Shown here: piece by piece, positions 8,751 to 9,851 of the stretch
Numbering within the stretch: the first letter of the stretch is position 1
How the letters are laid out: every line of letters begins with the position of its first letter
Origin: an uncultured Clostridia bacterium
GTDB lineage: Bacteria > Bacillota > Clostridia > UBA1212 > UBA1255
Assembly: GCA_947625435.1 (NCBI GenBank)
Contig: CANQOI010000002.1
Span: 1,043-65,042, forward strand
Length of the DNA: 64,000 nt
Direction of reading: 5' to 3'
Notes under the pieces: generated by a model
What the model was told of the DNA's origin: nothing
What the model saw: only the letters and a program-made list of their open reading frames with translations
The model's database searches: none
Position numbers and translations under genes: made by a program

Positions 8751-9851
8751 TCAGTGGAAAGCCGATGCAAAAAGTTCAAATTCTTGTTTTAGTTCCTCGT
8801 CGTTATCTATTGCATTTCGCCTCAGATTTGCAACAACGTCAGGCAAGTCTGCGTGTGGATTTTCAGCAATAAAACGTAAAACGGAGTCCAAAAAATTCCG
8901 ACTTAATACTTTGGCTGAAATAATCGATTGGCTAACAGTTTTATAAAATGTAAGCTTTTCATTTTCCAGCTCTTCTGTTGCTGTTACGGTATTTTCTTCG
9001 GATCTTTGAATCAAGACTGTTCTTGATTGCCCTCCATTGGACGGACCTATAACGCCCTTTTCCTCCAACAAATCCACTAGTCGAGAGGCTCGTGAATACC
9101 CAATTCTCATATTCTTTTGCAGCAAGAAAGCGGATGCCATGCCTGCTTCCGTTACAATTTGAACCGCTTGTGAAAACATGGGATCTTCGTTGTCATCTTC
9201 TAATTCAAAGGAAAATAATTCGCTTGCCATTTTAGTGTTTTTCGCTTCTTTGAAAGGAAAATTTGCCGTCATATTCGGCCATACGACGATTTGATATTCA
9301 GAAGCAAACGTTCTGTTGCGAATCAAGTAGAAAAAATCATACGACTTTTGGCATGCAAAGCGAAGAACATCACTAAAATCGACGAATTCCGAAAGCTTTT
9401 GCATTTCTCTGTAACCGCAAGCCCATAAGAGTCCGAATAAATTCAAGTAATGATCTGTCGAATATTTGTGCGCTTCGTTATTGTCAGAATCGGGAGATAA
9501 ATTGACCCTGATTAGTTTTTCGTTCAGCTCCTTTACTCTTCCATCGCCTTCTTCTCCGACAAAATACAGTTGAAAATATCTCCCGAATTTTCGATAAAGC
9601 AAACAACACGCTTCTATGTATTGCCTTACAGGTTCATCGAGGGACGGATTTATTCTTAAAAACTGCACATCAATTTCTTCCGGTACACCAAATTGCCGAG
9701 CCAGACTTGCTCGGCGTTCTTTCAAATTTTGCAAGCATCCATTATAATCGTTGTTAACCTCTTCCAGCCTGGTTTCAAACCGTTCCAGATTTTTGATGTA
9801 TGTTCTGATTTCGCTCTCTAATTGCTCAGTCCAATCTACGCTCATCTTCAA
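8751..9851 (-). CDS. 366-aa protein with an FtsK gamma (winged-helix, KOPS-type DNA-binding) domain in its C-terminal half; N-terminal coiled-coil/unknown
   Basis: DPMFSQAVQIVTEAGMASAFLLQKNMRIGYSRASRLVDLLEEKGVIGPSNGGQSRTVLI aligns closely with the E. coli FtsK gamma segment DPLFDQAVQFVTE...RIGYNRAARIIEQMEAQGIVS. RBS gaggtg. Confidence 0.75.
   Translation of the reverse strand: MKMSVDWTEQLESEIRTYIKNLERFETRLEEVNNDYNGCLQNLKERRASLARQFGVPEEIDVQFLRINPSLDEPVRQYIEACCLLYRKFGRYFQLYFVGEEGDGRVKELNEKLIRVNLSPDSDNNEAHKYSTDHYLNLFGLLWACGYREMQKLSEFVDFSDVLRFACQKSYDFFYLIRNRTFASEYQIVVWPNMTANFPFKEAKNTKMASELFSFELEDDNEDPMFSQAVQIVTEAGMASAFLLQKNMRIGYSRASRLVDLLEEKGVIGPSNGGQSRTVLIQRSEENTVTATEELENEKLTFYKTVSQSIISAKVLSRNFLDSVLRFIAENPHADLPDVVANLRRNAIDNDEELKQEFELFASAFH

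Follow-up and report, generated by a model that had tools for sequence, protein, structure and literature searches.

An FtsK-gamma-type winged-helix protein encoded in front of a membrane-less EssC-like ATPase in an uncultured Clostridia bacterium

We analyzed a 64,000-nt stretch of DNA from an uncultured Clostridia bacterium (contig CANQOI010000002.1; hereafter the window), in which an open reading frame (ORF) at 8751..9851 on the minus strand encodes a protein with a winged helix of the kind found at the C-terminus of the DNA translocase FtsK, the gamma domain. The gamma winged helix of this protein (hereafter the gamma protein) is genuine. Its gene is the first of an eight-gene operon, all eight ORFs of which are intact in the window, and the second gene encodes an ATPase resembling EccC/EssC of type VII secretion systems (T7SS). 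On balance we lean toward the gamma protein being a DNA-binding regulatory or sensor subunit of this membrane-less EssC-like ATPase. In that reading, DNA binding and its target, a physical contact with the ATPase and what the system does are inferred from sequence comparison and predicted structure.

Membrane-less EssC-like/WXG100 operons are widespread and known from comparative genomics alone, and their control and role are obscure. Such operons have already been described computationally, and gamma domains outside FtsK are already known in phages. What is new is the gamma-containing operon subunit, its candidate operator, its partnership with a co-evolving ATPase N-terminus, and the association with a retron in sister loci. 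A subunit with a well-understood DNA-reading domain, a candidate operator and a sister-locus retron offers concrete experimental handles on the question of whether these T7SS-derived ATPases respond to DNA or infection as triggers instead of acting in secretion. The locus also illustrates clearly how FtsK gamma is reused beyond chromosome segregation.

The gamma domain and the protein that carries it

The ORF was confirmed and gives 366 amino acids (aa) when read from TTG 9851, the numbering kept here for the gamma protein. Translation probably begins at ATG 9845, with a product of 364 aa, because a GAGGTG Shine-Dalgarno sequence lies 7 nt upstream and because the homologs and the database protein P0001 (364 aa, identical to the gamma protein read from ATG 9845) begin there. 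The assignment of 8751..9851 to a gamma-domain accessory protein draws on the ORF call, Pfam, P0001 and the homologs. Three parts can be distinguished: an N-terminal region (aa 1-218; 9198..9851, minus strand), predicted as a long helical hairpin at aa 7-97 followed by a poorly predicted segment; the winged helix of FtsK gamma type (aa 219-282; 9006..9197, minus strand), identified by Pfam, by sequence matches in the Protein Data Bank (PDB) and by Foldseek; and a C-terminal helical region (aa 283-366 and the stop codon; 8751..9005, minus strand), modeled as helices by AlphaFold2 (AF2) and conserved in the related loci L010 and L011. Related loci and database proteins are designated here by L and P numbers, respectively.

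The initial annotation of this ORF had placed a gamma domain at aa 222-282, nearly residue for residue like that of E. coli FtsK, on a separate upstream protein with a coiled-coil N-terminus, and the evidence bears this out. Pfam FtsK_gamma (PF09397) matches aa 221-281 (E = 6.4e-22, 77.5 bits, gathering cut-off 30.6). A phmmer search against all PDB sequences returned FtsK gamma entries alone, in gapless alignments of 60-62 residues, with the P. aeruginosa FtsK gamma entries 2J5O and 2VE8/2VE9 at E = 1e-10 and the E. coli entry 2J5P at E = 2.7e-9. The AF2 model, built from a six-sequence input, has an overall mean predicted local distance difference test (pLDDT) score of 50; its gamma region is usable (aa 221-280, block-mean pLDDT 58-78). 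Foldseek placed this region on 2VE9_A, the structure bound to FtsK-orienting polar sequences (KOPS), with a target template-modeling (TM) score of 0.88 and a root-mean-square deviation of 1.2 A over 60 columns at 40% identity. Structure prediction and comparison with an FtsK gamma structure, proposed with the annotation as a check, thus confirmed the winged helix, and the outcome that had been named as speaking against it, a region that does not fold in this way, did not occur. Long helices are predicted with modest confidence in the N-terminus (aa 7-54 and 62-97), and further helices in the C-terminus at aa 294-365 (block-mean pLDDT 44-67).

The likeness to FtsK/SpoIIIE gamma (PF09397; 2J5P, 2VE8/2VE9) comprises the winged-helix sequence, the predicted fold and the central arginine of the recognition helix, which is kept. 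The KOPS-contacting positions of E. coli FtsK, reportedly N1296, R1300 and E1303 (Sivanathan 2006), align with S, R and D in the gamma protein. This departs from the N/R/E of E. coli, and the S/R/D combination also occurs in gamma domains of real FtsK-type proteins, e.g., P0003. Further differences are that the domain is embedded between unrelated regions of a separate protein, not C-terminal to an alpha/beta motor, that its candidate target is a palindrome, and that the XerD-activating stretch TEKRKA reads TEAGMA here. A role as an FtsK decoy or in XerD interaction was judged unlikely because this stretch is not conserved; among the annotated genes from 1 to 11.6 kb, the part of the window searched for one, no recombinase domain was found. 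Tandem double gamma domains were also observed, both in a stand-alone 207-aa protein (P0002, L015:1609-2232) and C-terminally in FtsK-like translocases of uncultured bacteria (P0003, P0124).

Stand-alone or fused FtsK_gamma proteins are known from phages, e.g., the TerS-gamma proteins of Bacillus phages Sam46 and Sam112, whose role is unknown (PMC8190038). Like the gamma protein, they have recruited gamma outside FtsK as a portable DNA-binding module; they differ from it in architecture and in context. The 92 phage records that were matched align with the gamma region alone and not with its flanking regions, and scans of viral contigs for the gamma-protein family and for the ATPase family found no relatives of either.

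The full-length protein is rare. When aa 1-215 were compared exhaustively by phmmer with 1.84 billion representative proteins, only four matched, namely the query itself, one 380-aa relative (whose 90% cluster holds 15 members from different metagenomes) and two fragments. In word-indexed searches that started from the full protein or from a profile of four sequences, FtsK gamma matches dominated and the true full-length relatives were missed; these were located via ATPase neighborhoods. These homologs lie in L010, L011, L014, L025 and L029 and are 36-39% identical to the gamma protein; in addition, two other metagenomes (L001, L002) contain the gamma gene and the beginning of the ATPase gene with no difference in protein sequence. 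Over the whole gamma gene, the proportion of synonymous differences (pS) is 0.73-0.80, near saturation, against a nonsynonymous proportion (pN) of 0.20-0.41, and the gamma segment is the best-conserved part (identity 0.48-0.51 to the window copy, 0.81-0.87 among L010, L011 and L014). Judged from these substitution patterns, the gene is conserved and under purifying selection, because pN lies well below the near-saturated pS and the gamma segment is the most conserved.

The same data bear on the concern that the ORF is a pseudogenized or fragmentary ftsK, or a chance ORF. Annotation pipelines do call many gamma-only matches "FtsK", which could lend this idea some appeal. Against it stand the 218 aa before and 84 aa after gamma, which have no similarity to FtsK and matched no Pfam, NCBIfam or PADLOC family, as well as the conserved full-length homologs with pN well below pS, the gene's own conserved promoter and ribosome-binding site, and the lack of any FtsK alpha/beta remnant found nearby. 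We give this explanation next to no credence. The alternative raised with the initial annotation, that homologs would be generic ftsK pieces, gave way to a conserved separate gene.

The neighboring ATPase and its coupling to the gamma protein

The gene starting 36 nt downstream on the same strand (5427..8714, minus strand) encodes a membrane-less EccC/EssC-type ATPase of 1095 aa, as supported by NCBIfam, Foldseek, AF2, hydropathy and Walker motifs. The EccCa model TIGR03924 matches aa 214-728 (E = 1e-34, below its equivalog cut-off), and the FtsK match is local only. The AF2 model (mean pLDDT 74) has long N-terminal helices at aa 2-163, a predicted coiled coil, followed by three tandem alpha/beta domains, and its top Foldseek match is the three-domain EccC cytoplasmic region 4NH0 (2e-28 over 1054 columns); EssC D2-D3 (4LYA/5FV0) come next at about 1e-21, and a single FtsK motor reaches just 4e-13. 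The sole Walker A motif (GGTGSGKS, aa 509) and the sole Walker B motif (aa 616) both lie in the central domain, which by these motifs is predicted to be the only active ATPase domain of the three. In all eight operon proteins, the maximal 19-residue Kyte-Doolittle mean is at most 1.37, i.e., no segment looks transmembrane. The EssC-like nature that the initial annotation ascribed to the neighbor is upheld by the EccCa and 4NH0 matches. With three tandem domains and no transmembrane segment, instead of a single alpha/beta motor with a membrane anchor, the enzyme is not of FtsK/SpoIIIE type; PADLOC returned only generic FtsK/HerA models for it.

Three lines of evidence, namely conserved adjacency, a gene fusion and co-variation with the ATPase N-terminus, argue for a partnership between the two proteins and lend support to the functional coupling that had been proposed. 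About 75 clusters of ATPase homologs were found (45-74% identity, mostly about 1190-1210 aa), and about 20 loci were inspected. Gamma is present in seven distinct loci among these, and the other inspected loci have the core operon without gamma. In six of the seven (the window, with the identical L001 and L002, and L010, L011, L014, L025 and L029), gamma is a separate gene directly upstream of the ATPase gene; a retron lies upstream in the latter five and is absent in the window. In the seventh, L006, which has no upstream retron either, the gamma region is fused to the ATPase: aa 1-285 of the fusion protein P0096 align with aa 10-283 of the window gamma protein, and aa 577-1542 align with the ATPase.

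The position of gamma in this fusion is N-terminal, as opposed to C-terminal in FtsK. The initial annotation had described the domain as split from its motor. This was not borne out: sequence comparison indicates instead that gamma was added to the ATPase family, because most members of this triple-domain EccC/EssC-type family have no gamma and because the fusion carries it at the N-terminus.

Co-variation provides the third line. Over 15 pairs of loci, the identity between gamma proteins correlates with that between ATPase residues 1-210 (r = 0.95) but not with that between the active motor domains D1 (r = -0.21). The window and L010, for instance, share 90% in D1 but just 41% in the ATPase N-terminus and 36% in the gamma protein. 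The reverse pattern is seen between L025 and L029, in which the gamma protein (98%), the reverse transcriptase (RT) of the retron (97%) and the ATPase N-terminus (95%) are nearly the same and the three ATPase domains share 71%, 61% and 62%. Because identity falls from 95-98% to 61-71% at this point, a recombination breakpoint is placed by the alignment inside the ATPase gene (L025:2446-6009 versus L029:7994-11560), just after the coiled coil. These comparisons suggest two modules, a fast-evolving head (retron, gamma protein and ATPase N-terminus) and a motor-plus-toxin module, with modular recombination swapping the fast-evolving sensor head between different motor and toxin modules. This arrangement is reminiscent of S. 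aureus, in which essC variants are likewise modular.

The region in front of the ATPase gene seems to be a variable slot for a "sensor". Some ATPases carry N-terminal fusions to leucine-rich repeats (LRR; P0061) or Sel1 (P0064). In a clade without gamma (L012:2014-9723, L026:761-9786 and L028:216-4331), short paralogs or fragments of replication and quality-control proteins are encoded upstream (a 161-aa Bac_DnaA, DNA polymerase III alpha PHP/finger and FtsH-like AAA+M41 pieces), as are LRR_5 and WYL proteins.

The FtsK-HerA superfamily membership of the ATPase, and the 40-60% identity of the gamma domain to gamma domains of real translocases, could also be read in terms of a DNA pump, with gamma reading polar motifs similar to KOPS or SpoIIIE recognition sequences and loading or orienting the ATPase, as in a two-piece translocase like FtsK or Streptomyces TraB. 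This we hold to be very unlikely. The ATPase matches EccC/EssC over three domains (E = 2e-28), compared with a single domain for the FtsK motor (E = 4e-13); a membrane anchor is absent; downstream of the ATPase come WXG100-like genes and toxin-type fusions; most family members do without gamma; and the conserved DNA element of these loci is a promoter palindrome, not a skewed polar motif.

The operon as a whole, by its gene content, matches the membrane-less coiled-coil EssC-like/WXG100 operons that Bell et al. (2024; PMC11090510, section 10) described on computational grounds, citing Anantharaman, Iyer & Aravind (2012) for this operon type; HP0062/HP0066 are the H. pylori counterpart (PMC4978471). 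Shared features are the lack of a transmembrane segment or FHA domain, the long coiled-coil N-terminus, three ATPase-like domains of which the central one is active, downstream genes for WXG100-like proteins, a coiled-coil protein and a small protein, and an island-like mobile context. The accounts of these operons in PMC11090510 and PMC4978471 mention neither a gamma-domain subunit nor a retron. Further differences are the four WXG100-like genes of the window, the absence of a CoCoNuT or TerY-P neighborhood, and a 427-aa coiled-coil partner in which no nuclease domain like that of the described coiled-coil fusions (D-ExK or LHH/HNH) was recognized. Canonical T7SSa/b and variants c-j have in common with the operon a multi-domain ATPase of EccC/EssC type, WXG100-family partners, and toxins fused to WXG/LXG-like helical domains. 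T7SS variants a-j, however, all have a membrane-bound ATPase (Garrett et al. 2024; PMC11217815) together with membrane partners, and no protein of the present cluster is transmembrane.

A candidate operator and the retron of sister loci

Two promoters precede the gamma gene. The proximal one, sigma-70-like (TTGATT-17-TATAAT with a TG; 9880..9908, minus strand), is homologous to the promoter between RT and gamma genes in L010, L011, L014 and L025. The distal one is formed by a perfect 16-bp palindrome, GTACCGAATTCGGTAC (9986..10001, unstranded), which is followed in the direction of the gamma gene by a -10-like TACAAT at 9969-9974. The pattern ATG[CT]ACC-N6-GGTACA followed by TATAAT marks one to three promoters in every gamma-bearing locus, including the distant L006, and the candidate operator overlaps the -35 region of its promoters. 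It stands before the retron/gamma operon, before a downstream SUFU-type gene and before the fused gene of L006. Copies lie at L010:1-14, 665-678 and 11555-11568; L011:1258 and 12088; L014:319; L006:6512; L025:10744; L029:5451 and 16291; and L003:7545, the contig end cutting off the upstream part of L003. The operator was not found in the intergenic DNA of 11 gamma-less loci, and its two matches in coding regions equal chance expectation (about 2.4, hand-calculated, for about 377 kb scanned). The gamma protein is the only protein with a DNA-binding domain common to the operator-bearing loci. This co-occurrence is suggestive of the palindrome being the target of the gamma protein. The SUFU-type genes behind the operator promoter are immunity-like.

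On these grounds the gamma protein could be a plain transcription factor, i.e., a dimeric winged-helix repressor or activator of island promoters that acts via the palindrome and has no physical role at the ATPase. A palindromic operator overlapping the -35 region of one to three promoters per locus, and in gamma-bearing loci only, would suit such a factor, as would a gamma gene that stands first in the operon with its own promoter, and the predicted N-terminal helical hairpin could mediate dimerization. The fusion of the whole protein to the ATPase in L006 speaks against it, as do the tight co-variation with the ATPase N-terminal coiled coil and the recombination breakpoint after that region; moreover, simple repressors tend to be smaller than this protein of 366 aa, which has two additional conserved regions. 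We regard this as unlikely, though with a real chance of being right, and keep to a subunit that is also tied to the ATPase.

In L010, L011, L014, L025 and L029, a complete retron lies between the palindromic promoter and the gamma gene (L010:658-1985; L011:1163-2575; L014:221-1638; L025:1-1219; L029:5440-6762). The order in these sister loci is the palindromic promoter, a conserved noncoding RNA (ncRNA) of about 230 nt, the RT gene, and the gamma gene with its own promoter. The ncRNA is closed by the a1/a2 inverted repeats CAAACCCTTTACAGTA and TACTGTAAAGGGTTTG and has a fold z-score of -7.0; the RT (355-358 aa) matches the RT_Ec107-like (E about 1e-114) and III-A models. No retron RNA family was returned by Rfam on L010 and L011, where the ncRNA was recognized by its conservation, a1/a2 repeats and folding. 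By tblastn, no RT was detected anywhere in the 64-kb window, which keeps, without a retron, both the distal (palindrome) and the proximal promoter that flank the retron elsewhere.

Winged-helix accessory proteins recur in retrons (types II, III, IX and XIII; Mestre et al. 2020; PMC7736814), and the sister loci resemble this arrangement in that a winged-helix protein follows RT and ncRNA in one direction. They differ in lacking a PRTase/NDT effector and a PADLOC match for the gamma protein (PADLOC, with its retron accessory models, returned none), the partner being a T7SS-like ATPase module instead. Among the papers searched, none described a retron connected with an FtsK-like or WXG100 module. 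The retron directly in front of gamma in sister genomes points to DNA-controlled activity of a toxin or defense module.

Taken further, the gamma protein may be an adaptor that senses DNA or multicopy single-stranded DNA (msDNA) in a new retron type, whose effector would be a membrane-less T7SS-derived ATPase deploying WXG100-linked toxins; the window would then be a retron-less derivative, in which the adaptor reads its own operator or invading DNA. We advance this tentatively, as a possibility rather than an expectation. If true, retrons, an FtsK DNA-reading domain and type-VII-like machinery would be joined in one immune or toxin-release device.

A different view of the same retrons is that the gamma protein is an adaptor left behind after retron loss, which would primarily bind the msDNA/RT complex of the retron and restrain the ATPase-toxin effector, the window being a rewired or decaying remnant. 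In five of the seven distinct loci with gamma, retron ncRNA and RT directly precede it and share its orientation, and msDNA-associated winged-helix accessory proteins are known in retrons (PMC7736814). The window, for its part, retains both flanking promoters without the retron; 92 aa are deleted in frame from its ATPase, and the conserved H-x-G-H-H motif has been lost from its 427-aa protein. Decay sits poorly with eight intact ORFs and with a gamma gene and ATPase start that are identical in two other metagenomes. Furthermore, L006 retains the gamma region, fused to the ATPase, without a retron; effectors of this sort are not known from any retron type, and the gamma proteins match none of PADLOC's retron accessory models. 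This view too we consider unlikely, and we place it behind the plain transcription factor.

The reading that we favor, a DNA-binding subunit of the ATPase, would work as follows. The gamma protein would be cytoplasmic and tripartite (helical N-terminal region, FtsK-gamma winged helix, helical C-terminal region), its gamma domain having been recruited from a cellular FtsK as a DNA-binding module rather than being an ftsK remnant. Its helical regions would dock on the N-terminal coiled coil of the ATPase, a partnership proposed because of adjacency in six loci, the P0096 fusion and the co-variation with the ATPase N-terminus. Through its gamma domain the protein would contact DNA, most likely GTACCGAATTCGGTAC at the distal promoter, with autoregulation as the result; in sister loci its target may also be retron msDNA. 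The state of DNA would thereby be coupled to the expression or the activity of the ATPase and toxin module.

Several points weigh against this reading. Binding of the gamma protein to DNA, the palindrome, msDNA and the ATPase is in each case a prediction from sequence. In FtsK, several gamma monomers normally read one asymmetric 8-mer, which differs from a dimer on a palindrome. The co-occurrence of operator and gamma rests on about three semi-independent lineages, and co-variation of adjacent DNA can mirror linkage or recombination blocks rather than contact. The ATPase family for the most part lacks gamma and works without it, so gamma would be dispensable for the core mechanism. Outside the gamma domain the AF2 model is too poor for a fold assignment. 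Finally, the window system may be altered or partly disabled: the ATPase has the 92-aa in-frame deletion in its N-terminal region relative to the relatives compared, and the motif H[VI]GH[HE]L of eight relatives is replaced by HIGRRL in the 427-aa protein. This possible local impairment is considered because the absence of a retron, the ATPase deletion and the lost His motif come together. The altered motif of the 427-aa protein and the deletion in the ATPase may both be connected with the absence of a retron.

The rest of the operon and its surroundings

The operon lies in a low-GC island from about 2 to 11 kb (40-44% GC versus about 50-54% in the flanks). After the ATPase gene come four genes for small helical proteins of about 90 aa each, all on the minus strand. 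The first, s1 (5130..5411), is assigned by its family profile to the WXG100 superfamily and has a W-x-D motif; the profile matches the WXG100 structures HP0062 (3e-5), EsxB (4e-4) and EsxA (0.012), and single-sequence Pfam matches to WXG100 are weak. Locus comparison shows that s2 (4849..5118) is kept in the operon, and homologs of s3 (4547..4837) form the N-terminal domain of toxin fusions. The fourth, s4 (4269..4550, likely true start near 4535), has a weak WXG100 match and a conserved W-x-D. Two conserved genes follow on the same strand, encoding the 427-aa protein (2993..4276), with an N-terminal coiled coil and a C-terminal domain without fold match, and a 96-aa helical protein, the last of the core operon (2687..2977). 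When the profile of the 427-aa family was compared with Pfam and the PDB, nothing beyond coiled-coil noise came back, and no nuclease domain was recognized.

The idea that the N-terminus of the gamma protein is a WXG/LXG-type secretion domain was rejected, hhalign against the s1 family having shown no relationship; hhalign of the gamma-protein family against the 427-aa family showed none either. A phmmer/hidden Markov model scan of all window ORFs of at least 60 aa with the cluster proteins found no second ATPase, WXG100-like or gamma gene. No EssA/B, EsaA or EccB/D/E gene turned up in the 64-kb window, in which T7SS membrane-component models were not run on ORFs outside the cluster.

An ADP-ribosylglycohydrolase gene (Pfam E = 1.5e-38) at 1048-2223 on the plus strand of the window recurs beside related operons (L008:8709-9512, L009:6500-7303, L011:2-895). 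L007 encodes a fusion of an s3-like helical domain with an ADP-ribosyltransferase exotoxin, and a 128-aa gene comes next. These genes hint at a theme of ADP-ribosylating toxin and immunity. Between the ADP-ribosylglycohydrolase gene and the operon end lies a group II intron D1-D4 fragment (2373-2553, plus strand; RF02001, 46.8 bits against an Rfam gathering threshold of 32) with no adjacent intron RT ORF.

At the upstream island edge (10261-11092, minus strand, and 11314-11625, plus strand), DUF3791 (74 aa), an 81-aa ORF, a truncated DUF3990 (114 aa) and an XRE-type helix-turn-helix protein are encoded. The trio of DUF3791, 81-aa ORF and DUF3990 also precedes the gamma gene on metagenome contig L001. 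After the retron-gamma-ATPase locus of L029 (L029:17202-21560) are genes for a 1211-aa WH_1/DUF8437/ResIII helicase and an AAA_5-type ATPase, a neighborhood that is, by its predicted gene content, defense-island-like.

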